64,000 nt of DNA, taken from NCBI GenBank assembly GCA_030141605.1, contig JAQGDQ010002387.1, positions 211,691-275,690 of the forward strand. Direction: 5' to 3'. Positions 38,391 to 64,000 of this stretch are shown here, piece by piece. A program made the position numbers and the translations under genes. The DNA is from Tubiluchus corallicola. Its lineage: Eukaryota; Animalia; Priapulida. The notes beneath the pieces are model-generated. The model made no database searches. It saw nothing but the letters and a program-made list of their open reading frames with translations, and had not been told where the DNA came from. Each line of letters opens with the position of its first letter. Position 1 is the stretch's first letter.

Positions 38391-39252
38391 AGGCCTTTTT
38401 ATAAATAATCTCTGGATTGTGGCACGTCAAGCTTCGCTAGCGGTTTCTTTACTTGCGTAAACTACATGAAAGTGCGCACATCATTGTCTATTGTTGAGCA
38501 GATGAAACCACAAAATACTATAATTTGTTAAAATCAAACCTGTTGTAGTTTGCCATTTTTTATGAAAGATGAAGTGTAGCCAACCTAAAAGGAGAGAAAG
38601 TAGGTAAATTAGTAAAATTATGGTATTGTGTGCTTTCATTCGCATACATTACCCATCAACTATAGTGAATGATGAAAGCAATTTACCTGTAGCATAAGAC
38701 TTCACCGCCACACTCAACAAAAATTAGAACAACGTCCATACTAACTGAACACAACAGAGTAGCGCCACCTATCAATACTGGCCTTCATTCACTTTGTTAA
38801 ACGAATGCGATTCGCAATGTCTACACAATTATATTACTAGAATTTAATAACCAAGATTTAATAGACAAAATAAGCAACAGAGGAAATGAATTAAAGCAAC
38901 AAGGTTTCTCTCAAAAGCAAGTTTTGAACAACGTGTACGTTGATGACACATCACATCATGCCAGTGATTCCACGTCAGCAGCGCCGCGTCACGTTTTTGC
39001 AGCCATGTGTAAATTTTTACAGACATGTACGAATCTTGATAAGGCAGTTGTAAAGCTGCATGAGTGCATTTCTATTTACGTACTTACGCACCTCATATCT
39101 ATTTATACATTATTATATGAGGTGCATCTAGTTACGTAGGCCTATTCTATTAGTCAAAATAATGCTTAGATGCGCAGTCAAGATTCGTGTTTTCTAAGCT
39201 GAAAGAGTTAGACGGAATTTGCCAACTTTATAAGGCCTTGCTAATTTTTGTA

Positions 39253-40590
39253 ATGGCCTGTTCATCGTCCAAAGACTACTCCATAGATATGGCGGCAATA
39301 TGGAAAAGAGCAAACTGGTCTGAAAGATTGTCCAGCCTGTTTGATAGTGGTACGTTGCAAGACGTTGAGTTCATCGTAGGTGAAAAACGCATCACAATAA
39401 GAGCAAATAAACTCGTCTTGTCGTTGGTAAGTCGAGTATTTTTTACAATGTTTTATGGATCACTACCAGAGGTCACTAACACACCTATTGAAGTTCCAGA
39501 TATCAGAGTGAAAGTGTTCAACATTTTTCTCGAATTTGTTTATACCGACAGGATTCCCATAACTGATTGTAGTGTGTTATGTCATGATGGGGTTCCTTCA
39601 GCATTTGAACTAATTTATGTGGCCAAGAAATATGACGTGAGAAGGTTGGAAAGCATTGCGGCTAAGTACATTATGTCACATCTGACAGTTGATAATGTGT
39701 GTGATGTCATTAGAGAAAACTATTTGTACGAAAACCGGGACGTGCACGAACAGTGCTATCAACTAATTGATTTGTACCCGCTGGATGTGTTTACGTCTAA
39801 GAGTTTCACAAAGCTAGCCTACACAGAATTGCTGGAAATAGTTAAGAAAATAAACAACAAAATTTCTGAATTATCAATTTATGAATCAGTTGTTGGATGG
39901 GCGCGGGCTCAATGCGCCCGGAAAACACTGGCGACTTCTACTGGTAACATTCGCAACGAAATGAGCGACGTACTGTACGAAATTCGTTTTCCCTTGATGG
40001 ATCTGCAAGAGTTTGCGGATGGACCCGCTCAGTCCGGCATATTAACCGATAGTGAAGTAGCTAACATTTTCTTAAACAGGCATGGATCATTAAACAAAGT
40101 ACAGCTGATTTTTCCCGGAGAAAATAGGTGCGATTTTATGCTAAACTCACAAGACTTTAGGGGTAGGCCTACGCTTGTCTTTAGAGTGCCAGTACAGCAC
40201 ATTGATGGACTTCAACGCGGAAAAGGAAAGTGGTTTTCCTCTAAACCATGTTATCCTATTGCGGGAGTGTCCTGGGCGCTAGAACTTAGGAAGTGTGGCC
40301 CACTTACCTGTAATTCTGAGACTGAAAAAGGCCAAAGTTGTTGTTTTCATTTCCGGTTTGAACCCCATTGTGCAGCAGAAGAACGAAGAACTAGAACATT
40401 GTTCAGGGAATCCAGGATAGTGCTGGTGAATCTTGATCCACAAAAAAGCATCGAAAAAAAGCTGGCTGAGGACAAAACACCAGCTATTTGGTGGGAAGAC
40501 AACTTCATTTCGTCACGTGACTTGCTGACATTTGAAAGTGGCTTTATTATTGCTGACGTGATTACAGTTTACTTTATACCATGTGTTTAA
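39253..40590 (+). CDS. BTB/POZ-BACK protein (BTBD1/2/3/6-like N-terminal part) with C-terminal MATH-like domain; single-exon ORF
   Basis: BTB: DVEFIVG..IRANKLVLSLVSRVFFTMFYGSL..IEVPDI..F..FLEFVYTD. BACK: SELSIYESVVGWARAQC.R..IRFPLMDLQEFADGPAQSGILT. C-terminus: FSSKPCY.IAGVSWALEL..WWEDNFISSRDLL..ESGFI..DVITV. First ATG is 39253. Confidence 0.88.
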   Translation: MACSSSKDYSIDMAAIWKRANWSERLSSLFDSGTLQDVEFIVGEKRITIRANKLVLSLVSRVFFTMFYGSLPEVTNTPIEVPDIRVKVFNIFLEFVYTDRIPITDCSVLCHDGVPSAFELIYVAKKYDVRRLESIAAKYIMSHLTVDNVCDVIRENYLYENRDVHEQCYQLIDLYPLDVFTSKSFTKLAYTELLEIVKKINNKISELSIYESVVGWARAQCARKTLATSTGNIRNEMSDVLYEIRFPLMDLQEFADGPAQSGILTDSEVANIFLNRHGSLNKVQLIFPGENRCDFMLNSQDFRGRPTLVFRVPVQHIDGLQRGKGKWFSSKPCYPIAGVSWALELRKCGPLTCNSETEKGQSCCFHFRFEPHCAAEERRTRTLFRESRIVLVNLDPQKSIEKKLAEDKTPAIWWEDNFISSRDLLTFESGFIIADVITVYFIPCV

Positions 40591-41051
40591 CTAAGACACT
40601 TCAAGCAAATAATCATGCTAGTGTAATTATAAGAATCCACGCGAAAATAATATTGTAATTTGCATAAAATGAGACAAACTAATAAAGATTAACCGCATGG
40701 CAGCCATTCTAGTGCATGAGACAAAATTTTCATGTTGCGTATTTGTGCAAAATCGTAATGGCTAAAATCTGAAAATCTGAATGTAATGTTTTATTTTTAT
40801 AATGCAACTCAGTTGTGCTGTTTTATAGCCTATTAACTGTTACCGCTGCTGCTGCTGTTGTTGTTACTAAGACTGATAGAATTTTTTTATAACGACGAAT
40901 AAAAACGAACAGTCTTAAATTTTATTATTCTTATTAATACTTAGTCATTCTTTATCTAATTTAAAATTTCAACTTGCTGATTTATGTAGAAATGTAGCGA
41001 GATTAGATTAATTAAATTATGCTCTCAAAACAGAAAGTCCAATGGAAGTGG

Positions 41052-41156
41052 AAGTGTTTTATTAACTAACACTGATTGATTATCTCTGTAAAGTTTTTAT
41101 CGGTGATTATCAATGTATTTTAATGGCAAATAAAGATTATTATATATACATATATA
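41052..41156 (+). mobile_element. ~105-bp 5'-truncated copy of the 3' end of the LINE at 60369-64000
   Basis: Near-exact reverse complement of 60369-60477 (ttttattaactaacactgattgattatctct.taaagtttttatc.gtgattatcaatg...taatggcaaataaagattat), including the (TA)n tail. Confidence 0.88.
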
Positions 41157-41810: not shown

Positions 41811-42995
41811 ATGATACCAAGGAAAGTTCATGTCAGAGATATTGATGCAGCATTACACACTGGTTTAAAAAATCAGCAATCAGTTGATAAAGTCAAGAGA
41901 AATGCAAAAAGGTGGTTGCATCCGAAGGTATACACCATCCAGGAAATAGAAAATAAAAGTACAGTGAAACCTGGCGATAACAACTACTATCGTGATTGTT
42001 CAGTAACAAGCAATGAGTTGTATTACAAATTGCACCCACTTTTGAATTCTGCAAGGATTTTCGGTCTCTTTCACCTTCCGAAACATCGGCCCGAAAATGC
42101 TTCTCTGCTTGCCTCTTTTTCTGGAGCCACCTGGTGGTCGCTCGTGACACTGCTGTGTGTTACAGCAATATGTGCAAAGTCATTGAAATCTGACACTGGC
42201 AAAGCTGACCTGACGACAGCCACCGGCATTGCACAGTCGTTTGTCTTGTTCTTGGAGGTAATTCTGGTTTTGGTTAGATGGTTCACATTTGTTGCCGGAT
42301 TCAAAATGGCGAATGTTTTCTCAGAATTTGAGAAACAACTTCCTCGTTATATCAATCACAGTAAAGTTACTAACATCAAATCACTTACACAAACTCTCAG
42401 AGAAAATCGGCTTTCATGGGGATTAACCTTGATGGGCTGGGCGGTGATTATAAGTACTTTTTTGTATGCAACAATAAACAAGGTTTTCGAGAACCTGAAT
42501 TCAACTATAACTCTACGTTTGGTATTTATAAATACGGTTTATGTTATCTATGACAAGTTTCAGTTGGCAACTGTCATTTTTGCTGCATACATCGTCGTCT
42601 CGTTGTGCAAAATATTAAATTCTAAATTTAGTTTTCAACACGATGGCCTACGATTGGATACTGACGAAAAGGTGAATAATTTCTTGGACAAGCAAAGAGG
42701 ATTCATTCTTCTAATTGAAGTTGTGGATGAGACAATATCACCAATGCTTTTGATGATTTGTCTCGGAAGTTTCATGGTGATCGTTGTTCAAATTTATCTT
42801 TACAGCCATAATTATCACTCCGGTATTCCACCAGGTTATTTACAGGAATTTGTCCACGTGTTTTCTACTCTACAAAGTTTCTCATTCCTACTGATTCTTA
42901 TCAGCTGTACAGCTCTGCACGAAAAAGTCATGCAAGTTGAAAGAATTTTACATTCTATAAAACGAAGTCAATTGGGAGAAATGGCCAGATATGAG
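41811..42995 (+). CDS. GR/GRL-like chemoreceptor variable first exon A (TM1-TM6); predicted to splice to 50166
   Basis: 395 codons from ATG 41811. LHPLLNSARIFGLFH (GR-type pre-TM1 motif) and six hydrophobic segments. Ends ARYE at a phase-0 donor GAG|gtaaat; paralogous to B-E. Confidence 0.85.
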
Positions 42996-44128
42996 GTAAA
43001 TACATGAAATAATTCTCAGACCTGGCACTCTTCATATGCTATGTAGATTTTTTTTATTTCAGGAAATATAAAGAATAAAAGCAAGCATGTAGTGATGGAA
43101 AGTTAAACAGCTTCTAAGAAAATAAAACAAATTAGAACTGTTTGGAAATTTGCAGCAAGAGTTAGTTGTACAAGTGTACAAGCCACTAGAGCTCTAACAA
43201 TAAGAAAACAAAGGTAACACCTTGCCAAAACACACTCGATGGCTTGAAACACTTTATACGTGAGTGAAGTGCAACAGATAAAAGAAAAATATATATTTTA
43301 CATTAACTGTTGTTCAAAACAATTCATGTGCAGGTATTATTGCCTAAAAGGATGATGTTCTTCTATTCTTAGCCCTTAGCAGTTCCAGTGTTGGAAATTT
43401 TTTTCAAGTTTCTTTCCAGGTCTTTGCATCCGAAAACTGATTACACGTTCAAACTAATAATTAGTTGTCTTTAATTAAGTTACTGCACACTTGATAATTA
43501 ATAATAAAACCATTGCCTCCATACTCAACCAAGATCAGTCTCTGAATCATGTGAGATGCAATTTAAAAACTTTAAGATAGAGTTAATTGCTTACAACAGA
43601 TGTAGAGACGATTGCTGCTTTAATCTGGTACTTTAAGTTAAAAAAGTAAGCGTCTTATATCCAACGCTTATCACATCTTGTTGATTCCTAATATTCCAAT
43701 GCCACCTTCCTGGTGGGTCAATAACTAGATATAGTTGCTGTGCTGCAAATATTAGCAGTGTGACCTGCTAATTTTATTCTATCTGTGAATTATTCCATCC
43801 ATTACATCACTGAGGCACTTATTGCAGTATGCTATTATTTAACAATAAACGCCAACAATAAATGTGTGCAAGGCTGTTATGCATTTGTCTAGCAAATGGT
43901 AAATAGATTGAAATTAAAAGCATTTGTGTTTACACTACTTTGTTCTGCACAACATTAGCAAGCAACAGAAAAACCACCTTATTTATAGCAAAAACAATTC
44001 AGGACTTTTAGATCACGTTCAGAATTATTGCAATCGAGAAGTACTCCTCGTATGCTAGTTCAAGAAAAGGAAATAAATATTACTCAAAGTTAAACAAGAC
44101 AGGTGTTTTCGATTTTTCTACAAATGAT

Positions 44129-45241
44129 ATGAAGAAATCTAAAGACGTTTCAAAGCAAGTTGTGAGTACCATAAGTTGCATAGCTTGGAAATCATGTGAT
44201 GACGATCCTTCAATGCCCATCAACCGTGAAATGGAAGAAAAGAATTTCACAGAAATTTTGATGATGAATGATATGTATAAAAGCTTAAAACCTTTGCTGC
44301 AATCTGCCAAAGTTTTTGGATTATTTCACGTACCAAATCAATACCAGGAGAGTTTTCGCATGCTGTCATATTTTTCTAGAAGCACCACTTGGTCGTTCAT
44401 TGTTTTTCTTGGTGTAGTGTCAATTTGCATAAAGTCTTTGGTTGCAGATGTACAACATGCTAACCTTACTACAGCCAGTGGTATTGCACAATCATTCGTC
44501 TTACTGTTGGAAGTAATTCTCACACTTGTGAGATTTTTTGCATTCATTGTTGGGTTCAAGATGAGAAAGGTGTTCATCGAGTTTGACAAGATGGCATGCA
44601 AGAGGAAATCATATTTTGCTAAATCTGATTCAACTACAACCAAAATTTCTGTAACTTTTATATCCTATTTCCTGGCAGTAATTGGATGGGTTACAATGAT
44701 TGTGACATTTGTTTATGCAGCAATTCATAAAGTAAAAGTTCATATCGGCAACGACAATAATACTATGGGCAACATAATTATATCAGCAGCATATCTCATT
44801 TACGACAAATTTCAACTCGCAGTGGTAATATTTCCTGCCTATATCACTACTTGTCTGTGTATCACCTTGATACAAAAATTTAAAAATGCAAAACTTGGTG
44901 AAACCACAGACCAGAATCTTCACGTCTTCTTAGAAAAGCAAACCAAATTCATTCATTTAATCAAAGTTATTGATGAGACAATGTCACCAATGCTTTTGAT
45001 GATTTGTTTCGGAAGCTTCATAGTGGTCGTTGTTCAAATTTATCTTTACAGCCATAATTATCACTGTGACATTCCACCAGGTTATCTACAGGAATTTGTC
45101 CACGTGTTTTCTACTCTGCAAAGTTTTTCATTCCTACTGATTCTTATCAGCTGCACAGCACTTCACGAAAAAGTCATGCAAGCTGAAAAAATTTTACATT
45201 CTATAAAGCGAAGTCAATTGGGAGAAATGGCCAGATATGAG
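44129..45241 (+). CDS. GR/GRL-like variable first exon B; predicted to splice to 50166
   Basis: 371 codons; LKPLLQSAKVFGLFH; ends ARYE, donor GAG|gtaatt, phase 0. Confidence 0.85.
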
Positions 45242-46893
45242 GTAATTACATTAAATAGTATCTTATGCTTATAAGGGACAGTTGTAGATGACGGAATGCT
45301 CAAAAAATCAAATCTCAAGTTCTGTTTTTGCTTGCTAATGGCATTCTAACAAAATATTATAAAGCACCTTTGCAAATACAGTTGCAATTATAAGACCATA
45401 ATAAAATAATTAACTGATCAAATGAATTAATAATTTACGTGTGAATGTTAAAATGTTACAAACTACAACAAAATTGCAAATGCAATGTTGCAAAGGCTAT
45501 AAAGGCTACAAAGGTAGTTTTACAGTCTATTGTTCTGCTGGATTCTGCATATAAACAGATTGAATCACTTGAGCATGTATGTATAGGCTAACAAATTTAA
45601 ATGTAAGCTTCATCCAAGGCTTGAAGGCCTGAAAGGTGGCTGCACATGACAGTATATCAGTTTATCCCCAACAATTATAGTTCTTTGTATTTTAGCCAGT
45701 GCAGTTCATTACACAAGTTGGGGTAATCCAGGTATGAAACTGTCTACACCATTGAGACTTTGCCAGTGGTGTAAATCGTGCCATCAGCTGCAAGTGAAAA
45801 CAGAGGCAATAAGCACATTTACCCGTGACATCACGTAGTGTCACCTTTAAACGCACAAGATTCTTGTACAGATTTTGTAACTTAAAATTAACATTTATTA
45901 TCACGTAAAGTAAAATTTTGCATTTTAGCACACTATATTTCTTTTATAAATTACTCCTAGAGTCACGTCTGAGGACTTCACGTATTTGAAATTGAAAAAT
46001 TACAAAATCGTGTTTATCTTATTTGCAGTTAACTGTGCAAGGTCTGTGAAGACCTTTTTATTGCTAATTTGAAAGAATATGCTTTCGCTCATTGAATCAT
46101 AAATGTTGACAATGCGTTTGTTTGCCGCTCCTCATATTTTTGCTATGGACGTCTCCGAATGCCTAATGTTTGCTTATAAACTCTGCTTTTAACAGAGGCT
46201 TGTTATCTCACTAGTTTTTACCAAAAATTGTTTCCTGTCAACTACAGTTTTACTTGCTTCAAGAAGGTCGACCTATCACTACCAAGTTATTAATAAAAAA
46301 AATTTCTCGCCCTGTTTTTAAACCTGTTTTTTACTGTGGGAATGCCTCAGCATATTACCATAATTCAACGCTGTCAGTTCTTTAGAACTTCTGTCTTTCA
46401 GATTTTATGACATTTCTGACTTAAAAAATGACGAAGAACATGGACATTCAATCGCACACACACATTGTGCATTGCGCCAAAAAAAATTAAAGGGGCAAAT
46501 GCTTTTTTTAATGATTTATTGGCTCTTTGTGTTGCCAACTGATCTATGTTCATCCAGCAGAGGATTAGTGTTGCCTAGTTCAGCTTTAACTCATCCACCA
46601 TAGAAGCCGAGAATAATCGATTAATACGTTCACAAGACTTTGAGTTTTTTCTTAGTTATAGTTTTAGCTGGTAATGAAATACTATTTTTTGAGACATGTC
46701 GAGGACAATCGTGTGAAAGTAACTTCTACAAAGCTCACAACTATTTAAGTATAGTCTTTTTTAATCTGAGTTCAGGGACTATTAGCGATCACCCTGACGA
46801 TTATAAAATTAGTCATGGTAATATGAACACATAATTAATTAGTTAATTAAATTTCGATACCAAACTTGCAAGACAGGCGTGTAAAATATTAGA

Positions 46894-47540: not shown

Positions 47541-48677
47541 ATGGGCACCAGAATACCTTCTGCTCCAACAAATACTTTTAAGAACTCAGTAATAAAAAGT
47601 CCAACGAAATGGACACCAATTCAGACAATGGTTGGTGATGGAAAGCTTGCAAATAACGTGATTTCAGAGTCTGGCGACTTCATATTGTTGGACACAGTGA
47701 GTTTTTATAAAAGCTTGCATCCACTTCTAACGTTAGCTAAAGTATTTGGCCTATTTCACATTCCAAGTAGAAAAAACACGCAAAGGAGATTCCAAGCTCT
47801 TCTATGTGGCAGTACGACGTGGTCATTAGCAATGGCTGTTGGAGTCACAATAGTGTGTACCTACGACTTAATTACGGACTTGAGAGCTGCAGACTTGATT
47901 ACTCCAGCTGGTATAGCACAATCATTTGTACTTTTTCTCGAGGTTGTGAATACTATCATTAGATGGTTTGCTTTTGTTTCAGCTTTTAAAGTGACCAAGT
48001 TGTTTTCCAAGTTTGAGTGTACTACAGAAAACAGTGCCGAACGGACAAAACTACTTAGGCTCAAATTGTTTAAACGAGAGCTAAAAGACAGCACTGTCAG
48101 CTGGACATTAGCCTTTGTAGGATGGATTGCGATGAGCTGCACATTTTTAAACGCTTTAGTAGAGAAAGTGAAATATATCTACGAAGATACATCCATTAGG
48201 AGTTGCGTTTTAAATATCGTATTTTTATTCTACGATAAATTACAACTTTCCACGATCATGTTTCCAGCCTTTATTATAGTTGGTGTTTGTTGCACTCTGC
48301 TCTCCTACTTTGAAACTCAAAAGGAACCCCCGAAAGTCAATACCGATAAAAATGTGTTAAGTTATCTGAAGGGACAGTCAGCAATTATAGAAGTTATTGA
48401 AGTCATCGATGCAGCTATATCACCCTCGCTTTTCATGATTTGTTTCGTGAGTTTCATGGTAACTGGATTGCAAGTATATCTCTACAGTCACAACTATCAC
48501 TTTGGTGTACCAAAAGGTTTTATGCAAGAGTTTATATTCGTCTATTCTACTCTGCAAACTGTCTCGTTCTTATTAATTCTGATCGGCTGCACAGCTGTGC
48601 ATGAAAAGATTTTGCAAGCGGAAAGAGCGTTACGCAAAGTTGAACTTTATCAACTGGGTGACGTGGCACGCTATGAG
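47541..48677 (+). CDS. GR/GRL-like variable first exon C; predicted to splice to 50166 (ORF is open from 47325)
   Basis: LHPLLTLAKVFGLFH; ends ARYE, donor GAG|gtataa, phase 0. ATG 47541 gives a length comparable to the paralogs (379 codons). Confidence 0.83.
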
Positions 48678-48746
48678 GTATAATATTGGGCCTATACCAA
48701 ATTAATTCTTTTTTTAAGGCATGTCGCCTCTGAAGTGAGGAAAATT

Positions 48747-49056
<310 letters not shown>

Positions 49057-50165
49057 AATTCTTTATTGCTATAAAATTTAGTAGTTTACTACCCATTCAA
49101 AAATTGACAGCATAACCAGTGTTTCCACTGCTGTGAGTATTAGTGTCAGGATAAAATAAAATTATGAGTAAAAACATGAGTGAAGCTATGATCATTACAT
49201 CGATTGCACAAAAGTCTACATTCATTTGACACGGTTCAGCGAGTACTTAACACAATTTACAATATTTGCAAGTAATAGTTTTGTCTAAGATATTAAAATT
49301 GTGTAAATATGAAATTGCATGAGTGGTTTTGATTTTTTTTGAGTTGGTGACACTACAAGTTGAATGTTGATAATAATAAAAAGGTGTGATTTGATATTTT
49401 GTATTAGGTCTTTTTGATGGCTAGCATGTTTTTAGTTCATTTTTGAATCCTTTTAGCGTCACTGCAGATTTTACATTAAATAGCTGAATACTCTTGCTTT
49501 TGTGTTAGTAACGGAAACAACACAGTAAAATTAAATAAAGCAAAAATAAAACAAAGCAAGAATAAAGCTCAGCGAAACAAAGCATAGACATAAAATATTA
49601 CAGCTTCTGAAACACACTGAGACTTGTAAAATCTGCATGTTACGATCAAAATAGAGTTTTGAAAATAATTTGTGTTGCCACTACTCAATGTTTAACGCCT
49701 TCATGCCGATTTTTATTTAGAATAATAGGTAAACAAGCAGAATGAAGCGAAGTATAAAATACACGACAATGTTTAGAGCGGCAAAATAATGTAAAATGGT
49801 CAGAAAAAAGAAAAAAATGCGACATGAAACAATAGTTATAACGAGGCAGCAGTACAATAATCATTATCGTTTATTAATATTATGACGACCAAATACTTAG
49901 CGCCAGTTTATCGATGAACATCACGTTTGTCAAACTGCTTGCCTTTGAATATTAATAAAATTAGGATGCAAATGCAGCTAAGAATTCAAGTTTATTGCAG
50001 CAAAATGTTTATGTTCACGGGTAAAGTCATTGGGTGAACGTAATTATCCGATGAGATTGAAAATGACGATGATGGTGGTGATAATGATTGTGATTGTTAC
50101 TCTGGTAATGACGAAAATGATAGTGATGGTGATAAATGAGAGCCATAATTGAATTGCTTTTGCAG

Positions 50166-50255
50166 GTACTTATTCATCTCCAACAACTATCATCAAGATC
50201 TATTGGCCTCACAATCTGGAAATTCTACGTCATCAATCGAAACTTTGCTTTTATC
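50166..50255 (+). CDS. GR/GRL constant exon 2 (90 nt, phase 0/0; intracellular loop 3/TM7a)
   Basis: ttgcttttgcag|GTA CTT ATT CAT...TTT ATC|gtgagt. Encodes VLIHLQQLSSRSIGLTIWKFYVINRNFAFI, resembling the GR 'F..QL....I.hT..gfF.in' segment. Confidence 0.88.
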
Positions 50256-50372
50256 GTGAGTTCAGTTTGTTGCTATTTTGGAAATATAGCTTCGCCCAGT
50301 TTAATTTTTAAAGTGGAGATTAGATTTTTGATCTTTTCACTGATGAACTCAATAAACAGTTTTGTAACGTGA

Positions 50373-50530
50373 GGCGAGTTGAGTAGCGGAGTGGTCATGG
50401 CATGCGTTTGTCAGTGAATGGCTCGTAAGTGCCCGGGTTTGATGCTCCCTGAGGGAAATTTCATTCGCCATGCTAATTTCTTGTTGCGCATATTATACCC
50501 ATCTTCCGTACATATACATATATATGAATG
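50373..50530 (+). mobile_element. Possible tRNA-derived SINE remnant in GRL intron 2
   Basis: A-box-like TAGCGGAGTGG (50384-50394), B-box-like GGTTTGATGC (~50436-50445), and a TA-rich tail near 50510-50525. Confidence 0.35.
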
Positions 50531-50883
50531 TGATTAAAACAGCTCTACCAGCTCAGTGGTTCATCTTAATGGCTATTCATGATAACGAGTTTGGCATTGA
50601 TCTCCCCAAAAAACAGTGGACCTATTATTAAGAGCTGGATTTTGGGTTGCAATACATTTGCAATGTATTTTATAAAGATTAAAAATAAAAACGTGCTTTA
50701 CCTAAAGCACCTTCATCACAAAACAAATTCATATTTTGCTTTGAGTTCTTGTTGTCAAATAAACTCTTGAATAAAAGTTACCAAGCTAGTTTGTTACTAT
50801 TGCATGATAAATTTATAACTGTTATAACGTTTATAACTGTTGTTGAGTTGCTTAGTTTAACAATAAATGTTGTTGTTTTGCAG

Positions 50884-51045
50884 ATTGTCAGTGGTATCTG
50901 CACGTTTTTCATCGTGATAGTACAATTTCATCAGACAATTATTGGAAAGCAACAGACAAACGTGACACTCCTTATGGACGCCTTTGCCAATGAAGCTTGT
51001 CATATCTGCAGACGATTTCTCAACAACCTTAGTGATCCTGATTAG
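50884..51045 (+). CDS. GR/GRL constant terminal exon 3 (TM7b pore helix + C-tail)
   Basis: tgttgttgttttgcag|ATT GTC AGT GGT.... Encodes IVSGICTFFIVIVQFHQT...SDPD*. TFFIVIVQF matches the GR family signature TYhhhhhQF with Y->F. Confidence 0.88.
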   Translation: MVSGICTFFIVIVQFHQTIIGKQQTNVTLLMDAFANEACHICRRFLNNLSDPD

Positions 51046-52800
51046 AAGCTTCGAGCTTGTCAACTTGCTGCTATAGCTTGACAAAACGCATCTAACTATG
51101 GTGCAAATTCTGCAAATTAAACAATATATGTCACTTTAATATTAACCGAGCAACAAAACGAAGAAAAATGAGATTTTTCTAAGCCCAGGGACAGATTGTA
51201 TATTTTTATCCACTCATATAAGAATGTGTAGGTTTTTTACCTACTCATTTTGCTAATTTGAAATTTGAACCTAATATTCAGACGCATAAGCTTTAGCCAA
51301 ACAAAGACAGCAGAGTTTTATGTTGTGTGTTGTTTTTTATATAAAAATTTATTTCTTTTTTTGAATAATTCAGAAGGACCGAATTTTAGGGTTAAATTAA
51401 AATATCAGTAGGTGGACTACTCTTACCCTGACTGGTATCAAATTGGTATATGGCTAGTGTTTTAAGTAAACTGCATTCTTATTTTTTTTTTATAAAATTC
51501 CATGCATTGCAAGCCAAAATCCAACTTTTAAAAGCAGGTTCATTGTTTTTATGGCGAGAATCACAGCTCAATTCATTACCTGTACTTTTGATAACATTTA
51601 AATTACACTTAATCAAACTACGGTTCTCTTGTTTAAGAATAATCTGAGGATGCGTTCGAAAGCTTTTACATGGAAATTGAGAAACAAGAAGCGAGTTGCT
51701 GTTTTAACTTGCCTATATTCTTGCCTCTACTGAATTGTTATTACCACTTTAGAACTTTAAAAATTTATAGTTTTCAGAATGTTTAGTGTATGTAAAATGA
51801 ATGTATGTATGTATGAATTATTTACGTAAGCCTTCCTTTTACTTATTTGAACTGAATCGAAACTAAAATTTGTAGTGATTTAAAACTTCTTGATTTGATA
51901 GCAAATATCGTATTATGACTATTAGCAGAACGCAGTAGAAATAGCTCGTTTCTATCAGCTCCGGTATCTAAAGTCAAATTAACAATGTTCATATTGTTAG
52001 TGCTACTAATCTTTATTAACACTTATGTTTATTATAATTACATATTTCTTTAGAGAACACGTCTTTGTGCGTTGTGATGTGCACATAACAAATAAAAGTC
52101 CGTTTCTGTATTTGTGGCAGTAGCTGCATTATTGTATTTTGAGTGTGCAGTGGCGATAATGGCATCTCTGTCGAGCAATGCCGAAACGTGCCGATTTATG
52201 ACTAATCAAGTGAATAAGTCTTTAAAATTACGTCTTCATTGGCTTTTAAGCTAACATTAAGCTTTCCAAATCTAAATCACCCATTATTAGAGTCCCTGTA
52301 TATTTAAATATATAGTTGTAAATATATAGTAATTCTATCCATTATTACAGTATGCTGCTATCTTCTGGTGGGAAAAACGCAAAAACAAGACAGGCTAGGG
52401 GATGAAAATAACAGATGACAGAATGAGAATGGCCATTTCGTTTTTGTTGTAAACCGTGACATTTACAAGATTGACATGCTCAAACAAATATGATCACGCA
52501 TAGGCAAATCACATTTATTACATTAAAACGTGCCTGTAATTGTTTGCGATGAATAAACGGTAGCTCGCGTGGATGTCATTGACAATTTAGCTTAATGTTG
52601 GTGTTGGAAATACTTGATTGCTCCTTCTTTCTGGCTAAAGCTGTGAGTTAAACTAAACGTTGTGTCTTCTAATTAATACCGCAGGAACTCATACGACTTA
52701 GACAACTTCATTTGTAGCTACCGAAAAAGTTATCTAGACGTGTTTAGTCATCTTGCTTCGCTAGAAGTGACCTGTTGGTGACACAGTTTTTAAATCCAAA

Positions 52801-53901
52801 ATGAAAGCACATCATAACACATGGACCATCGGACTGACTGGTTCACTTAAAGTCACGAAGGAGCACGTTAAAACACTATCTCCTAGAAAACTCAATACAG
52901 GTTCCCATAATGATTCCAACTGCCAATTTTACCAGAAATTACGTCCACTATTGATTTTTGCCACAATTTTTGGCTTGTTTCACATGCCTAACAGAAAGAC
53001 GCAGAAACGGTTTGGGTTGGTGGTATTGTCCTACAGTACCATGTGGTCTTTGACTATTCAGATTTTCGTCACAGTTCCAACTATATGGTCCCTTATGCGT
53101 GATACCAGTAAAATTGATCTCACAGCAGCAGAAGGAATTGCCCGGTTATTTGTCATGTTTATGGAAGTAACACTCACATGTATAAGATGGTTGGTATTCT
53201 TTGCTGGATTTAAACTGGTAGATGTCTTAGCAGAATGCAGAGAAGTCAGCAAAATTCAATATCCAAATATGCTGGTTACAGTCATCTCTGGGAAACAGAA
53301 GTACTTGGAGAAAGGAATATCATGGATATTTGCCACGTTAGGAGGGATCATAATTGTCTTTTCGATTATTACAGAATCTCACACTTTGTGGAAGCGGTTT
53401 AAAAGCGGAGAAGAAGAAATTTCATTTCTGCCGATTCTGATTATGTATTTGGTTTCTGACAAGCTGCTGTTGGCAACTGTGATGTTTCCTGCTTATATTA
53501 TAACTTGCTTTTCCTACGTGCTAATATCCCATCAAAGATCATTTCAGAAAACAGAAGAAAATCTTTCAGCTGAAGAAGTCATGTTGTTTTTGAAAAGACA
53601 TTCAAAGTACATTCGCGTTGTCAAGGTCATAGACAACGCTATATCTTCTACACTGCTGATGATCTGTCTGGCAAGTTTTATGGTAGTTGTAGTACAAATT
53701 TATCTTTTCAGTCACAATTTCTATGCTAACATTTCCCACGGATATCTGCAACAATATTTGTATGTCTACTCTACCATGCAGTCTGTGTCATTTCTGCTGA
53801 TTCTTGTTAGCTGTACAGCAGTACATGAAAGCGTTATGGAGGCTGAAAATAAGTTACATGCGTTGAACAAAGAGAGCCTGGGGGAGACAGCACGTTATGA
53901 G
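52801..53901 (+). CDS. GR/GRL-like variable first exon D (constant exons not in window downstream)
   Basis: 367 codons; LRPLLIFATIFGLFH; ends ARYE, donor GAG|gtaaat, phase 0. Confidence 0.83.
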
Positions 53902-55919
53902 GTAAATTTATTGTATTGCATTTGTCTATCAGCAATATTTCACTAATTTCTGTTTTAAATCACTCATGTTTTGTGTGTAGGTTTGTATGTATTTATATAT
54001 TCTCTCCATTATCTATCGTAGTTTTTCGTACTTAGTATTTCTTTGTGTTGTCTTACAAAGAGATGATCTTGCTTACATGATTGCCTCCTGTTCTGAAAGT
54101 AGGGTGGGAGTTTAGCAGCCAAAACCTGAAATTGCTCAAAATATGGATTCCTCCATGGTGACCTTATTTTTGTGTTGGTTTTAGTATTGTTTTTTGTTGA
54201 ATTCTTTTATTCAGATAATAATGCAACACAGCTATCTTGTTGACTTTCATCATTTACACGAAATTTGATGATTATAATCAATTCCAAGCGATAAAGCGGC
54301 TAATGTGGAATTGTACTGTCTAGACATCCTATACCGCAGATCTTCTATTAATTAAATCAAAGCTGATTAAGATTAAATTATTTTTCATTATTGGTCTGCA
54401 GGGTGTAATTAGATTTCACGAAATCTGATCTTGATAAAATCTTTCCGAAATTTTAGTAACTCAGTAAACCGACTCACGTTCTAACTCCTTATTTTAACAG
54501 CTGCAAGAAAACAACAGAAAATAAACACTAGAGGCATTTACCTTTACCAACCCAACTATGAGAAAAATCGCGAATTTCGGATAGTATCTGCTACATAGGC
54601 CCCTGGGTCTATTTGCTCTTAAACCCAAAACATTGAGATCGAATGTTGTACAAGCCAACCGAGGCTATACAACCATAAGTCGTGCTTTAATATGGTGTGC
54701 GGTAAAACCGCACAAGTAAAAATGACACAAGAAAAAAACATGGTAAAAGTGGCACAGGAAAAATGGCACAAATGGAAATCGCACAATTGAAAATGGCATA
54801 TATGTTATTTTGATGCAATTAATTTCTATAAAAAAAACTAGAATGCGCCCAGTAGGAAGCAAATCTCTGCCAAAGGCGAACAATCCTAAACTTATTCGTC
54901 TGATTCCTTTGATTAAAAAAATTTACCCCAAAGATAAACCAAGCAAACATACAAAAATACACCTGTATTGGTATTATATAGACTAGACTCACAAAATATT
55001 TGTTCATTAAACAGATTTATAATCAATAATGCACGAATGTCCCACATACAATTTGAACTAGCCTTCTACACGTATTTTTTCTTCCTTATTGTTTCTTTTT
55101 ATGCATTTTGAATCATGTATTGGTAGTATTGCTGCTGGCACTGCTACCTCTTGTGCTCCAAAAATGTTATAGTCCCAAGTTATTTTTAGTATGCTTTATG
55201 ACTGCCATATAATAATCGTTTTGTTACTTTGTTGTAACACGACAATTAGACTAATACTTTGAGTGACAGATATGAAATTAAATGTGTTGTAGCACAAAGG
55301 GTCAGCAAACAAGAACGTTATCAGCAAATTGGCAAATAACCCGATAGCATGCAGGACAACTTATTGTAACTACAAAGGACAATTATGCTGTGGTGTCTGT
55401 TTGTAGCAGTTGTTTTGAATTGCGATTGTGTTTTGCAACAATATACGATGATGTAAAATAGCCTGTCTCATCAAAAACGCGATAAAGCATTTCTAAAACT
55501 CAATGTAATGAAACAAGAAGTCAAGTTATAATTATTTTGTGCGGACTTCAAGGTTTCCATTGTGATTTGGCCAGTTTAAAAGAAACACCTACCTAATCAG
55601 TCAGAGACGATCATTGGCAAAATTTAGCAATTATTAAAAAGCTTGCTTGCCACTGTCCAGCTTAAGTAAGTTTATGTGTTGACTGTCCTACATTATGTGG
55701 TTCTGTGACACTTGACATTTCTGTTGTTCCATTTAACAAATTGAGCCATAAAAACTGCAGTCTTTTAATCCCGGTCATATTACCAACACCAATTGTATAA
55801 GTACCAAATTTATTGGCAAATAAGCCAATTAAGGAAGCACATAGATTTCTAATATGAACGTGTCTTACTAGTAGCCAAATATAGATCAAGCTCCATTTTG
55901 TCGTCTGAAGATAAGTAAA

Positions 55920-57047
55920 ATGGAGAAGTCTCGTGATGCAAGGTCCGTTGACTTGGACAATAATCCTAAACATCTAAAGCAAGAAGAGGAGATAAACACT
56001 GAGTCACCTCCCACAAGTGGCAATAACTTCAATGTTATTTTTGAAACTGGTTTGTATCAGCAACTAAGGCCACTGTTGACAAGCGCAATGTTTTTTGGTC
56101 TCTTTCATATTCCTAACTGCAGAAAGAAAAATGCACTATTTGGACTTGTATTGTTGTGCTCTCGTAGCACCATTTGGTCATTAATTAATCTGATCTTTGT
56201 CACTTCAACAACTGTGCTCTTGTTTCTGATTGATTATGAGGATATTGAGACAGTGATACTCACAACGCCAACAGGAATTGCAAAAATGTTTGTCATTTTA
56301 ATGCAGGCAACATTATCTTTGATAAGATGGCTGATCTTCTTTGCTGGTCTCAGAATGGCACACATTATGGAAAAATCATATGAGGTTCAAGAAGCAGAAA
56401 AAATCTATTCTTCTCTTATTCCTACAAAAAAGAACAAGAAGAAAAATTTCGAGAAAAGAATGGTATGGAGCCTGACTGTATTTGGATGGATTGTTATTTT
56501 TTACTCGTCTGTCAAGGAAGTTTTTGTTTTCTGTGAGATATTTGTGGAAGATCTGGAAAAGGGAGCCATTTTTGACATTGTGGCGATAATCATACTTTTC
56601 CTGTATGACAAATTTCTGTTGGCAACCGTCATGTTTCCCGCATTTACCATAACGAGTTTATCTTTTATATTAAAGACTAATCAAAATTTGGCACTGAAAA
56701 TGGAAAATCTCTCAGATGAAGAGATTATGTTATTTTTGAAAAGGCAAACGAAGTATGTTCATCTGGTCAAGGCCATAGACAACGTCATATCTCCGACATT
56801 GTTGATGATCTGTCTGGCAAGTTTTATGGTAGTTGTGGTACAAATTTATCTTTTCAGTCACAATTTCTATTCTGGCATTCCCCCAGGTCATCTGCAGCAA
56901 TATTTGTATGTCTACTCTACCATGCAGTCTGTATCATTTCTGATGATTCTGGTTAGCTGTACAGCAGTACATGAAAGCGTTATGGAGGCTGAAACAAAGT
57001 TACATGAGTTGAATAAAGAAAGTCTGGGGGACACAGTACGTTATGAA
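55920..57047 (+). CDS. GR/GRL-like variable first exon E (constant exons not in window downstream)
   Basis: 376 codons; LRPLLTSAMFFGLFH; ends VRYE, donor GAA|gtaagt, phase 0. Confidence 0.83.
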
Positions 57048-57929
57048 GTAAGTTTTTATCATTACCTTGCTGAAGACATTTATAAATGTCCCTCTTGTTT
57101 ACAAGTATGAAGACGATAGTCTAAATGGTAGATTATCTTAAAGAAACGGCCCCAAATGATGGTAATCGTGAACAGAAAGATGTTTTCTTAAAAATGTTTA
57201 TTTATTTTTCACATTATGCGTGCAATCCAACAGTAACAAAACAAAATTCATGCTTGTGAAGCAGCAGTGAGCTAAGGTAATTACGAAAATGTATGAAGAA
57301 ATATCAAGATTAGCAAAGAAAATAAGCAAACAGATTGATTAAACTGTCATATTCCAAATTACTCAAAACAAGCGTTCTAGAGTTATCGAAAGTCAGCACC
57401 AACGAGGTGCATCAGTGGCTTTGTATGAAATGCACAATAGTTAAATGTTTAGAAATTTTGATAGTGTACCACGTGAACACCCAGAATCTCCCATTCTCCC
57501 AGGAAGCTTTAAAAATTCCCCCACGTACATCAGTTTTGGACCACATAAGCAACGCTATACAGCAACTAAATAATAATAACTTCAGCATAGACGTGTTACG
57601 TGATGACACCAGCAAAGGTGTTGATATATATTTTTGAGCTGATCGTTTTGCCCAACTGCTACAATGTGTTAAATTGTTAGGGTACTCTAAACTTGCTGAA
57701 CTATCTTCGTGTGACATCTTCAGCTCAGGTACCCTCAGCGAGTACTTCGTGACCGTGTTCAATACTCTCTCTTGGAGGTTTCATTTAGTATACTATTTTA
57801 AGCTGCCTACTTTGCTGGTTGAGGATAGTTCACCTCTGCCAGCTTAGTGACTTATCTCTGAGAGTTAACATTGAAATAAATTAGGCTCTGGTCTCTTACC
57901 ACAAATATAACAACGAATAGGCCCTGATC

Positions 57930-58830
57930 TATTCGATGTTTATTCGTTTTCCTACAAAGAGAATCATCTATAAAGCAGCTTATCCAAAGATTTTCTGAAC
58001 TTATTACGCGATAGTATGCCAGCTGACCACCCATCGGTGGACAAGTTAAATAAGATACTGTTATTGTTTCGCCTAGCTAAGATGCTTACAATGACAAGCA
58101 AGAGAGAATATGGTCTTACGTATTTACAGAAATATGATGATAAAGGCTTGAAATCTTAAATTACCCAACTATATTTGCCTGTTAGTCTTAATAATGTGCA
58201 CTTGTGTTAATAGAGTTTGGCAACTAAAAGTTTAGCTTTATCGACCATCAGAAAGTTTTGAAATTAACATATGGGGCTAGTAATTCAATTACTTTACTCA
58301 TGTAAGGTAATCTTATAGCATTGTAAAATGGACATGTTAATAAATAAAACAACTCATCTCTACTTTCTTAAAACTACTGATTAAAGATTTGTTTCTAGTA
58401 TCAATGGAAAGCTTATTGCATTCATTTATATAAGACAGGAAGAAACTTGATTGAAAGTAGTTAGAATTGCAAGACATTAACGACAAATTTTCACTATTAT
58501 GCAAATTATAATAAGTTCTATCATAAACATGTAGCACAAGTAGAGAAGTAAGGTAACACGGAGAAGCTCCTTTAACTATTTTATAAAATAAAAGCATTTT
58601 ATGAATGTATCTTTTGTGTGACATGTTTTCCCAAGAAAGATCTTTCAGCAATTTCTCACCGTATGTAACAAAAACAGCCCCTGTCACTACTAACGAAGCA
58701 TGGTACTGAATTTGCTCAACAACTAGAACACTTGCTTCTGAACAATATTTTAGCAATCACAGTATTCAAATGAGAGGATGAGGAAAAATAACTATAATAT
58801 AATATGTTGGGATTTAACGCTGGATATCAG
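57930..58830 (-). mobile_element. Decayed CR1-group LINE 3' fragment
   Basis: ORF 58337-58756 reads EQIQYHASLVVTGA..LLKDLSWENMSHKR..HKMLLFYKIV.G.SP.YL..YNL..FQSSFF, the post-RT region of CR1-type ORF2. Boundaries are approximate. Confidence 0.75.
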
Positions 58831-59635
58831 CTCTGAAAAGAAGTCGAGTTAATTACTCTTAGGCGCAGTTTGCAGTTGCACTCAAAGGGATAGACGGCAG
58901 CACATGTCCATTGAGTAAATGAAGCCAGTATTAAGGAATCAGAATCAGAATCAGTGTAAGTTAAGGAAGAATCAGAATCAGTATTAAGTTAAGGGGCGAG
59001 GTCGACTTGTGCGAGCATCAAGTGAAAAATAGTCAAGTTAAAGTCGACCAATACTTTGGTGCTGTCAAGGCACTGAGTCAGTAGGAGAATAAAGAAGTGA
59101 AGTGCGAAAGAATAAAGTATTCAAATATTGGGTGTACCCAAAAACGATGTTGTCACTTCCTGTATCGCCTACTTTCTTCTAGAATTTTGCAGTATAATTT
59201 TGGCGGACAGAAAAGTTAATAATCTGTGCAGAGGATTGTTAATAATCGGTTTTAGTGGTTTTACGTAGTGCGCTCTTCAGTGAAAAACTGTATCATTTAA
59301 ATTTGCTAATCCATGGTTAAAACCTAAGTAACAAATTGTCAATTATTCTTTTTCGAAAATTAAAGACATCGCATCCTTGAATTTTTTTAAATATGTATTC
59401 GATTCAAGATTTTCGTATTTAAGTTTGTGTAAATTTGTTTTTTATAATTATTATTTCTATAGTTACTCAATTGGACCCAAATACCTGCTAGACCCCAAAG
59501 TCATTCAGTACGATTCCGGCTCCTAAACGCAACCATACGAATGGCAAGACTATAATTGTTTGATTGGCCAGATATTAGTAACCGTGTCATTCTGGTATCG
59601 TTCACGTTGCTAGTAAAACAGCAAAGAAGCGAAAT

Positions 59636-60360
59636 TAATAATAATAATAATAAAAAAATAAAAAATAAAATAATTATTATAATTATAATAATAATAATAG
59701 TAACCTTTATTTAAAGTCAGCATTAAATTCAAAAGACAACACAAGTCTGCCACGACGCTTTTGTGGTTTCTATCTCTAATGACCAGTGTTGAAATGCTCA
59801 AATCTTTCTGTGCAAAATCTAAATATGCTAACGTTTGTCCGCCTGCTGTCCTTTCTGGCTGGTTCTATCGTTTGCTGAAGACCTTTAATGAATTAGTTTC
59901 AGGTAGTCAAAGCATATGACCATAGTACCTGGAATATTAATGGTGCATTTTATAGAGTTGGGAATAACACTGTCTCAAAATTTAATGAAGATGGCTTTGT
60001 GGCCTATTTGCCAGTGACATTATTTGTCTAATTGAAGCACATTCTAATTCTAGTCCACAGATTATGCTTAAAATCTATACATGTGTACAAAATTGTCATC
60101 CCAATTCAGATAAGCGCCATTTTGGAGATTGTTCTAGTGAAGAATTCAATTCGCCGCGGTGCAAAATCCATTGACAGTAAATGTTCCGAATATATTTCGT
60201 TAAAATGTTAAAAGATTTCTTTGATCTTGAAAGAGATGTGTATATCAGTGCAACATATGGTATCACCAAGGGATGCGTCTTTTAATTTGCGAAATAATTT
60301 GGATGTTTTTACTTTATTAAAAAATGATATTATTAAATTTAGAATGCAAGATGAACCTGA
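59636..60360 (-). mobile_element. Highly decayed RTE-like LINE 3' fragment with (TAT)n tail
   Basis: Minus-strand pieces RYYGHML*LPETNSLK ... GGQTLAYLDFAQKDL ... RDRN resemble the RTE C-terminus (RWFGHV.RM..GRP..W.D.V..DL..DR). The trinucleotide tail is at 59636-59700. Confidence 0.5.
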
Positions 60361-60368
60361 TTTCATTT

Positions 60369-63300
60369 TATATATATATATATATATATAATAATCTTTA
60401 TTTGCCATTAAAAACATTGATAATCACTGATAAAAACTTTATAGAGATAATCAATCAGTGTTAGTTAATAAAAACTTACACTGCTGAAGGCAAATGCGTC
60501 AGTGCAATCTAAACTACTGTGCAGTAATGACGAATAAAAGCAAACATATTTACAACTATACACAAAAAAATATAAAAAAAACTATGATTTAATTAATATG
60601 GCCGTGGGTATATGAATTCGGAATTAGTGTGTATGTTGTCGTACTGGTGTGATGGTATTTCATATCTGGTTAATATTAGTGATTTTAATTTTGTTTTAAA
60701 TGCTGATAGGGACTTGATTTGTTTAACCTGTAATGGTAGAGAATTCCAAAGTAAAATTGCTTGTTTGATTACAGAGTTCGTTCCATAGTGGGTATTTGTC
60801 CTAATTTGTTTTAGATTGCTTGTTCTGGAATTAACGATAGGATTTGGAAAAAAGATAAATCTGTTATTCTGGAATGGTTTGCTGATGTTGTTAATATATT
60901 TATATATAAAAAGCAGAGTAAAATATTCTTTGTGTGCTTCAATGATTGGGAATTTTAAAGTTTTTCTCAGGTTAGTTGTTGAAGCTTTGAATTTTTGTCT
61001 ACTTGCCTTGTGTTTGTATGAGTACCCAGCTATCAATCTCAACGCATAGTTTTGAAGGAGATTTAATTTTAAGTAATTTTCTCTTTTGGTTTTTTGAAGT
61101 AGCGTACATCCATATAAGAAGTGTGGTAGAACTAAAGTTTTATATATTAGTGTTTTAGTTTCCTTTGTTAGTTGCCCTTTAACTTGTCGGAGATATGATG
61201 TGCTAGATGCCATTTTTGTGTATATGTTATTAAAGTGATCATCCCATGAAAGATTATTGTCTACTTGTATGCCCAGGAATTTAACATTGTTAGTTTTTTT
61301 TGATTACAGCATTATCTATTGTCAAAGTGGTTGATGATGCATCATTAGTATTTAATGAGGGTGACAGTATCATGAATTCTGTTTTGTCATTATTCATTTT
61401 TAGCTTGTAATGACTAAATGCCATATTTATATTTTTTATATCTTCTTCTAAATAATTTTTTGCAGTTTGGACATTTTCATGGGCTATGTAGATTGTAGTG
61501 TCATCAGCGTATTGCGTTATTTGTGAGTGTTTTAATACACTGGATATGTTGTTTATATATAGGCAAAATAATAACGGACCTAGTAGTGTTCCTTGCGGTA
61601 TACCTCTGTTTAACGTGGCCCAGTCAGAAAAGTTGGTTGTATCTAACTTTACTCGTTGTTGTCTATCTTTGAGATAATTTTGTATCAGTTTTAACGATAT
61701 CGAATCTAATCCGATTTGTTTTAAATTATCGTAAAGTAGTTCGTGATTAATGCTATCGAAAGCTTTACTTAAATCCAAAAATGCTGCTAAAATGTATTGC
61801 TTGTTGTCTAAACTATGTCTCCAATTTTCTGTTGTGTGTATTAGGGCGTCAATGGTTGAATGATGTTTACGGAAGCCAAACTGATGTTTTGATAAAAGTT
61901 CATGTTTATTTACATATGAATTTATCTGATCATAAATTACCCTTTCCCAAACTTTGCCGAAACAATGGATTACGGAAATTGGGCGATAATTCATGGGATC
62001 ACATTTTGGATCTTTTTTATGGATTGGAGTCACATTTGCCATTTTACATACCGTTGGAAATTTGCCTCTCATAATTATCTGATTAGCAATGTAAGTCATA
62101 TGCGGGGCTATTACAGATGCGCTATCTTTTAGAATTTTGATAGGAATATCTGATGGTCCACTCCCTTTGTTGGAACTTAGGTTATTTAATATGTCGTTAA
62201 TTTCTCCTACTGTGACGCTTTTGAATGAGAATACTGTGTTAGACGATTTGTTTTTTAATTTATTAATTATATTATTGCTAATATGAGAAGCCACTCCCTT
62301 AAAATTTCCAAGATTCAGGAATATTGCATTTAACGCGTTGGCAATATCTTTGGGTTTTGTAATAACAGTGTTGTTGATCTTAATTTCGTCAACACGCGTT
62401 AGTTTGTTACGGCATTTATTTATTACATTGTTAATAATTTTCCATTTTTCTTTGGTATTTGTTGCGTTTTTACATTGTTGTTGTATATGTTTATTTTTCA
62501 AGCATTTATTAAGATTATTAAATTGATTTCTCTTTTTTTTATAATTGTTATGATTGTTTTTAGTTTTGTTCTTTTCCCATATATTATACATTCTGTTTTT
62601 CGCTATTCTTAGTTTGCCAAGTTCAGGTGTTGTCCAGGTACTTTCGTTATTGAGTTTGCTTTGTTGTGGGATTTGCTTTACGTTTTTATATGGTGCATGT
62701 ACATTAAGGCAATATTCGACATTATATGTCAGAATATTAACTTGTGTATCTATTTTATCAGTCATATATATGGAGGTCCAGTTCATTTTTGCTAAGTCGA
62801 TTAAGTATGAATGTTTGTTGTATTGGGCGTAGTCTCTCATTAAATGCCAGACTGAATTTTGGTTATTATTATGCTGTGGGGTCATTTATCTACTAATATT
62901 GTGAAATGATGATCTGAATAATCACACGGGAAAGTATCATATGCTACGAAATTATTGTTACTATTCGAAATGAAATGGTCGATTACTGTAGCTGATGTTT
63001 TAGAAATTCGAGTAGGTTTATTGTTGTTAAGTATGTGGACATTATATTGTTTTAAAAGCTCTGTGTATGTTTTGTATGCCAGTGTGTTTGTAGCTAAAAT
63101 ATCAAGGTTGAAATCGCCCATTATAAGAACTTTTTTATTTTCGAAAACACTGCGTTCTAGTTCTTCACTAAAGTATTTGAAAAATGTTTTGTGTTTGAGA
63201 TTGGGTGGTCTATATATGGTTCCTATTACATAGTTCTCAATGCTGCACCAAACAGATTCAATCTTGCCGGTTCTGATGCCTTTCATTTCTTGTGGTCTCA

Positions 63301-64000
63301 GGTGTGAAGGTATATACATTGCAACCCCTCCACCTTTCTTATTTTTACATCTATCTCTTCTTATTAATGTGTGATTAGGTAATTCTATAGTGTTGCTAAG
63401 TATTTGTTTATGTAGCCAAGTTTCTGTTGTGCCTACAATCAGATTTTCGGTGGCGTGAATTGTATCTTTCAGCAGCCAGTGTTTTTTGACGAGACTTTGA
63501 ATATTTATATTTAGAAATTTGATGTTCTTTTTATAAGTAATCATGCATTTTTTTAGCTCATCACTGGTATTATTATTGTTGGTGTTATTATTATTATTAT
63601 TTGGCAAAATGGGTCCAGGGTTAGTTGCGATACCACCAAGTATAAGTAGTAAACGAATTATGGTTAAAATGTAAGCCAGTTCAGAACATGAGTATAGAGT
63701 GCTTTCAAATTTAGATGAAATCTGTAATTTTTCCAATTTTTTTAGAGCTACGTATTTTAGATTGACATGACGCATTTGTCTTATAGCACTGAGGTACACA
63801 ACTTTTAAGATGGATACAAATCTTTTTAAAATAAATTGCATAGAGTGTCTTATTCTATCGCTATTTACAGGAAAAGCAATGAAAAAGTTGTTTAAATTAC
63901 CTTTAGTCATTACATTACAAATTACTGTTACGTAGATCATTTTCAGTTTTAGTATGGATAGTAATGTACGTAGAATAACTAAGACGTAAGCATAGTTACA
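60369..64000 (-). mobile_element. Nearly intact CR1/L2-group non-LTR retrotransposon (APE endonuclease + RT), running off the window edge
   Basis: APE: NINIQSL..GTTETWL..RRDR..GGGVAMY..GTIYRPP..MGDFN..PTR..IDHF..SDH (62882-63940). RT: NYRPIS..QFGFRK..FLDLSKAFD..GIPQGTLLGPLLF..YADD (61290-62885). C-terminus 60593-61213. Only two frameshifts (~62884, and an 8-nt A run at ~61294-61301). 3' UTR with (TA)n tail. Confidence 0.95.

Follow-up and report, generated by a model that had tools for sequence, protein, structure and literature searches.

A divergent gustatory receptor-like exon array in the priapulid Tubiluchus corallicola, with two long exons that probably use a second, downstream tail

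Introduction

In the 64,000-nucleotide stretch of Tubiluchus corallicola DNA analysed here (the window), five long coding exons, A to E, are accompanied by two short constant exons, C1 and C2. Exons A, B and C lie upstream of this pair and exons D and E lie 3' of it, which raises the question of the tail to which D and E are spliced. As the preliminary description of this DNA had pointed out, C1 and C2 (50166-50255 and 50884-51045) are the sole constant exons in the window, and we found no paralogue of either downstream, over 51046-64000. In agreement with the reading preferred in that description, we propose that D and E are most likely used as alternatives, each being spliced in cis to a further pair of tail exons predicted beyond position 64000. 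Most simply, the missing tail is an effect of the window edge.

Results and discussion

Organization of the locus

The exons of the array are the following:

Variable long exon A, 41811..42995, plus strand: putative TM1-6 of a gustatory receptor (GR)-like channel, with a phase-0 donor; start ATG chosen among in-frame ATGs.
Variable long exon B, 44129..45241, plus strand: Pfam 7tm_7 above the cut-off.
Variable long exon C, 47541..48677, plus strand: start ATG uncertain.
Constant exon C1, 50166..50255, plus strand: exactly 90 nt, phase 0-0, the size of the canonical 90-bp penultimate GR exon.
Constant last exon C2, 50884..51045, plus strand: TM7 motif TFFIVIVQF and stop.
Variable long exon D, 52801..53901, plus strand: 367 codons, intact, donor GAG|GTAAAT.
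Variable long exon E, 55920..57047, plus strand: 376 codons, intact, donor GAA|GTAAGT.

In all five long exons the coding sequence closes with RYE, after which comes a GT donor in phase 0, and the donors of D and E are in register with those of A, B and C. The preliminary description of D and E as intact exons with this same phase-0 donor is borne out: both are open, without a stop, from the ATGs at 52801 and 55920 through 367 and 376 codons to 53901|GTAAAT and 57047|GTAAGT. For A, B and C together with C1/C2, the window displays the complete arrangement of several long first exons, each with an ATG and an in-phase donor, upstream of one common tail. A search for promoter or leader motifs common to the regions upstream of the five long exons gave a best E value of only 0.19.

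Reading through the donors extends the open frame by a tail of 14 residues in D and 20 in E, and poly(A)-like hexamers occur within 700 nt. These features could indicate that D and E transcripts remain unspliced and yield six-helix proteins without TM7, which would act as non-conducting or modulatory subunits; in this regard, the account available for bee Gr13 describes it as having no conserved C-terminus while being otherwise intact in two genomes. However, the tails and hexamers of D and E are not special, because comparable ones are found in A, B and C, and no relationship exists between the D tail and the E tail. In addition, the D and E donors are kept at the exact ancestral position, that of E being the consensus GTAAGT. 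We consider unspliced expression highly improbable.

Protein family

Two of the five long exons pass the cut-off of 26.6 bits for Pfam 7tm_7 (PF08395). Exon B scores 34.5 bits (E 1.9e-8, profile positions 1-311 of 370) and exon E 28-29 bits (1-314 of 370, the C-terminal part lacking). The matches of both exons stop at profile positions 311-321 of 370, and the remainder corresponds approximately to C1 plus the start of C2. Exons A, C and D alone stay below the cut-off, yet they are 36-59% identical to B and E. In the ESM Atlas, the top matches of E (0.95-0.96) carry 7tm_7, Trehalose_recp or DUF267. For D, a low-confidence AlphaFold model (mean pLDDT 55.9) was compared with the PDB by Foldseek; the 16 best rows listed are all insect GR, OR or Orco structures, with a best E of 6.3e-4, TM scores of about 0.45-0.53 and a single match at E <= 0.001. 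At a common threshold, hydropathy profiles contain six segments in A, B, C and E and five in D; C2 has one.

The TM7 motif of the family has been defined as (T/S)Yhhhhh(Q/K/E)(F/L/M), with Y->F tolerated (PMC9998090; PMC7746228), and TFFIVIVQF in the upstream tail C1/C2 fits this definition with Y->F. In the canonical GR/GRL gene, as described (PMC13388675), the long first exon is followed by one of 69-72 bp, one of 90 bp and a short last one, all introns being in phase 0. The locus has two phase-0 introns and the 90-nt exon but lacks the first of the ancestral introns; conservation of the 3' introns of GR genes is reported as general and not universal (PMC9998090). On account of the 7tm_7 matches, the fold matches, the exon anatomy and the TM7 motif, the locus is, by its sequence, a divergent GR/GRL (7TMIC)-like array, to which an ion-channel role can be assigned by analogy.

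Searches for relatives of this array gave no homologue of D at E <= 0.001 among 5156 candidates, and none for a profile of the five exons at the same threshold among 1.84 billion protein representatives. Likewise, PDB sequences gave no match, a D/E motif had no exact match, and a pattern search of metagenome contigs gave 311 matches, of which none was confirmed. As judged by sequence, the lineage is very divergent and independent of its insect counterparts. Since the homologue searches gave no relatives, neither an outgroup nor a C-terminal profile could be built.

Selection and gene conversion

Exons D and E are 52% identical to each other, and D is 36-39% identical to A, B and C. Over 324 codons the D/E comparison gives dN 0.33 and dS 0.91 (Fisher p 1e-12 over the core), and over the last 91 codons dN 0.07 and dS 0.26 (dN/dS 0.27, Fisher p 1.4e-3). 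Relaxed dN/dS, together with a lack of expression, had been named in the preliminary description as the mark of pseudo-exons. The values found, 0.27-0.36, contradict old pseudo-exons: because D and E have been under purifying selection, with dN/dS about 0.3, this possibility is ruled out.

The 3' ends of two pairs of exons are unusually alike:

D/E homogenised tract, 53620..53921 (partner 56766-57067), plus strand: last ~280 nt of the exon and ~20 nt of the intron, putative gene conversion.
A/B homogenised tract, 42714..43015 (partner 44960-45261), plus strand: last ~280 nt of the exon and ~20 nt of the intron, putative gene conversion.

Synonymous divergence in the D/E tract is 0.26 versus 1.52 in the rest of the exons (p 4e-9), and in the A/B tract 0.20 versus about 3 (p 6e-14); the 5' sensor parts of both pairs are near saturation at synonymous sites. 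No such homogenisation was found in the A/C and A/D comparisons, nor any between the groups ABC and DE, and C shows a 3' dS of 1.3-1.7 with A and B. We read the tracts as the result of gene conversion between like neighbours, a process by which the sensor half would diverge while the half facing the common tail is kept alike. Conversion appears to follow similarity and not module membership, since C, which belongs to the first module, is not homogenised with A or B; the tracts are therefore weak evidence for the existence of two modules.

The preliminary description had also assigned D and E to a sequence subgroup of their own. The subgroup stands: in a tree of the five exons, built without outgroup and with a root between ABC and DE that is a midpoint estimate only, a long branch leads to a D/E clade, with bootstrap 100 for the unconverted 5' part alone. 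The motif quoted for it is indeed present in D and E and absent from A, B and C, but it overstates their closeness, because it lies inside the apparently converted tract.

Within the D/E tract, nonsynonymous change is depleted (p 1.4e-3), which implies that selection acted after the last exchange between these exons. We simulated neutral evolution at 0.13 substitutions per site, half the tract dS, and the reading frame, ATG and GT were kept in 7/2000 copies of D and 14/2000 of E; at 0.02 substitutions per site, 779/2000 and 789/2000 copies, about 39%, stayed intact.

Search for a second tail

A tblastn search with C1 in the window returned C1 itself at 63 bits and matches of at most 19.6 bits elsewhere. 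A splice-aware scan of 57048-64000 gave 70 C1-sized AG..GT/GC candidates and 131 C2-type candidates with best scores of 13 and 23, respectively; the minus strand, taken as background, reached 20 and 25, and the self scores are 152 for C1 and 93 for C2. No tail exon was recognised in the 6953 nt after the E donor, in a search queried with C1 and C2 alone that a very diverged tail could escape. A pair of a C1-like segment at 57822 and a TM7-like motif at 57981-58025, considered as a decayed second tail, was rejected as being at chance level; its joint score of 56 was reached by 14/35 control tiles and 48/300 simulations.

Beyond E, the window contains two features:

Non-coding stretch, 57048..60374, no strand assigned: two multi-copy repeats, no recognisable constant exon.
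Young APE-RT LINE, 60375..64000, minus strand: continues past the edge of the window, with a (TA)n tail and an ORF2 split over three frames.

The interval 57048-64000 had been described as mostly LINE. A LINE is present, but it accounts for only 52% of the interval (60375-64000), the rest being 3.3 kb of repeats and low-copy DNA, with at least two repeats (summed contig depths 70 and 1180) in 57048-60374. Elsewhere in the locus the exon-to-exon spacing is 1134-2300 nt, whereas 3328 nt separate E from the end of the LINE. This gap is somewhat long and not out of range, because it includes the two multi-copy repeats; nevertheless, even with the LINE left out, 3328 nt is more than any of the other spacings (2300 at most), which, like the lack of a tail exon in the 6953 nt after E, speaks against a second module.

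The empty 6953 nt could also mean that D and E were recently orphaned, with their tail exons lost through a deletion or cut off by the young LINE too recently for the long exons to decay. The LINE is indeed young, its ORF2 being nearly open, the intact fraction at 0.02 substitutions per site would suit so recent an event, and loss and decay of long exons are reported as common at the Drosophila locus Gr39a (PMC2204066). On the other hand, selection went on after the last D/E exchange (tract dN/dS 0.27), and the apparent decayed cassette at 57822/57981 does not rise above chance. Moreover, an antisense LINE within an intron does not by itself delete exons. Very recent orphaning is, in our view, unlikely.

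Assembly and sequencing-run contigs

Thirteen contigs of the sequencing run X1 matched 50120-53990 at 80% likeness. This run behaves as DNA, one contig crossing the intron/C2 boundary unspliced, while run X2, presumed to be RNA, gave 4 matching contigs, all partial and on repeats. Neither a second C1/C2 nor a third D/E-type exon appeared among the matches listed (8 of the 13), which leave C1 and much of C2 and D uncovered. The differences listed in D are two synonymous changes (53685, 53031) and one R->K (52886), with no indel listed, and one X1 contig with three differences matches the letters of E.

These contigs bear on whether the order of exons is an artefact of assembly, such that D and E would truly lie upstream of C1/C2, or that a downstream tail was collapsed or misplaced. 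The region is repeat-rich, both breaks of the LINE ORF2 (~62885 and ~61295) fall at A-runs and may be read errors, and no single X1 contig bridges C2 to D. However, the window contains no N, and X1 contigs cover large parts of 51369-53119 and of 54417-55997, arranged as in the window and with no joint in 50120-53990. The D/E clade is, in turn, distinct, as expected of a separate module. We give this explanation very little credence.

Splicing of D and E

The proposal of a second downstream tail can be formulated as a model, drawn from insect GR loci. Each long exon would have its own promoter and ATG and encode the TM1-6 ligand-sensing body, and the 90-bp exon and the last exon would add the TM7 end with the pore and the subunit contacts; such a division between N-terminal (sensing) and C-terminal (pore and subunit contact) halves has been described (PMC7746228). 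The donor of a long exon would join the next tail acceptor downstream, so that A, B and C would use C1/C2 while D and E would use the second tail beyond 64000. As for its history, an ancestral unit of one long exon, C1 and C2 would have been duplicated in tandem, and further duplications of the long exons would then have given A, B and C in one copy and D and E in the other. Gene conversion would have exchanged 3' ends between neighbours, and the insertion of a young LINE would have made the intron after E longer.

The preliminary description had alternatively invoked trans-splicing of D and E to the upstream constant exons, with mod(mdg4) and, reportedly, lola as cases known from Drosophila. 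A D or E exon without a tail of its own, trans-spliced or spliced out of order to C1/C2, would be consistent with donors in phase with the C1 acceptor and with exons that are under selection although no tail is in view. The comparison with mod(mdg4) holds in that exons are common to many isoforms; its geometry, however, is the opposite, with common 5' exons and variable 3' exons (PMC13490949), whereas the variable exons here are 5'. By analogy of layout, a better geometric precedent is the sDscam-beta of the mite Tetranychus, a different protein family in which adjoining modules likewise comprise variable 5' cassettes and constant 3' exons, and in which trans-splicing of 5' cassettes to the constant exons of adjoining clusters is reported for about 60% of isoforms (PMC9258826). 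A further precedent, bee Or140/BtOr161-163, was deduced from an inverted first exon (PMC4414376); unlike that case, all exons here are on one strand.

If such splicing depended on pairing between introns, complementarity to the intron before C1 might be expected, but the antisense matches are unconvincing: 13 nt after D (E 0.037, in one of five blastn comparisons with G-U pairing left out) and 11 nt after E (E 0.95), neither better than the A/B controls. This negative result is itself weak, because mod(mdg4) is reported to need no pairing (PMC13490949). The window edge accounts for the missing tail with no new mechanism, and we regard D and E exons that have no tail of their own and borrow C1/C2 as very unlikely.

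It had further been held that trans-splicing could be dismissed once a constant cassette is present downstream. This is too strong, since the sDscam-beta clusters each own constant exons and still trans-splice (PMC9258826); a second tail alone would thus not exclude some trans-splicing here. The broader case, in which the D/E sensor exons, whether or not they also possess a tail, are trans-spliced back to C1/C2 between two tandem modules, is decidedly unlikely. If true, trans-splicing would represent a novel means of combining the sensor part of one chemoreceptor module with the pore part of another, and the first case of the sDscam-beta style in a GR/GRL array, in a non-arthropod ecdysozoan.

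Comparison with known gene arrays

Splicing in cis to a second tail would place the locus close to well-described insect genes. In Gr39a, tandem long exons with their own start codon and donor encode six TM segments and undergo mutually exclusive splicing to small common TM7 exons (PMC2204066). According to the published description, it resembles the present locus in its long-exon/short-tail layout, purifying selection, exon duplication and gene conversion and, by analogy, splicing; it differs in having three common tail exons instead of two. Gr39a is, besides, an insect locus, while the present one is priapulid and would be followed directly by a second module.

Several long first exons with common short 3' exons and phase-0 introns, as found here, are also reported for Blattella Gr60a-m and 25 further Gr genes, Dendroctonus DponGr38a-d and Tribolium Gr214 (PMC6175461; PMC6720082). 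Of these, DponGr38a-d is described as having exactly one unique N-terminal exon and two common C-terminal exons (PMC6720082), the arrangement seen here. Genes with multiple first exons are common among GRs, with 26 counted in Blattella (PMC6175461), and annotators are said to allow for overlooked 'conserved cores' in GR genes (PMC13388675). In contrast to this shared anatomy, none of these insect genes emerged as a sequence relative of the array at E <= 0.001. With regard to non-insect examples, the sections consulted of the Strigamia paper contain nothing on spliced GRs.

Both the family and the layout are already known. If the second module is true, the locus would be a divergent GR-like array with the insect layout of swappable first exons in a priapulid, which suggests that this layout emerges wherever GR genes retain their long-exon/short-tail structure. 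A literature search, judged by titles, found no paper on priapulid gustatory receptors; because of this, and because no relative was found among the 1.84 billion representatives, such priapulid GR-like genes are probably missed by annotation.

Other features of the window

In the LINE after E, a 2A-like motif, GGIATNPGP, precedes the endonuclease (near 63610-63640). At that site, low-activity 2A-like sequences of Crack/CR1 elements are reported to have a change of E to A (PMC3708506). Just upstream of exon A, a segment of 110 nt (41047-41156, plus strand) is 94.5% identical to the 3' end of the LINE, in opposite orientation. A second, decayed RT-type LINE (Pfam RVT_1) lies at 36543-37256 on the minus strand. 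Two overlapping ORFs at 24898-25439 (minus strand), with no Pfam support, are presumably a broken N-terminus of a pogo/CENP-B-type transposase. About 300 nt of the C-C1 intron (48740-49050) are a compound (AAT)n/(AGT)n microsatellite, and a high-copy repeat between D and E (54700-55050; summed X1 contig depth about 1900) has an 83% inverted copy at 21027-21285.

Two intronless genes on the plus strand precede the array. The first (26505-28034) is a Shaker-type Kv1 gene whose closest named relative is from Priapulus caudatus (66% over 90%). It nests in a clade of Priapulus paralogues (SH-aLRT 98 and 100, with long branches flagged), in a tree of 32 rows made up of the query and 31 of the 120 matches listed, among which no kinorhynch, nematode or tardigrade row could be named. 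The second (39163-40590), a BTB-BACK gene, lies 1.2 kb upstream of exon A and can be used as a synteny anchor.
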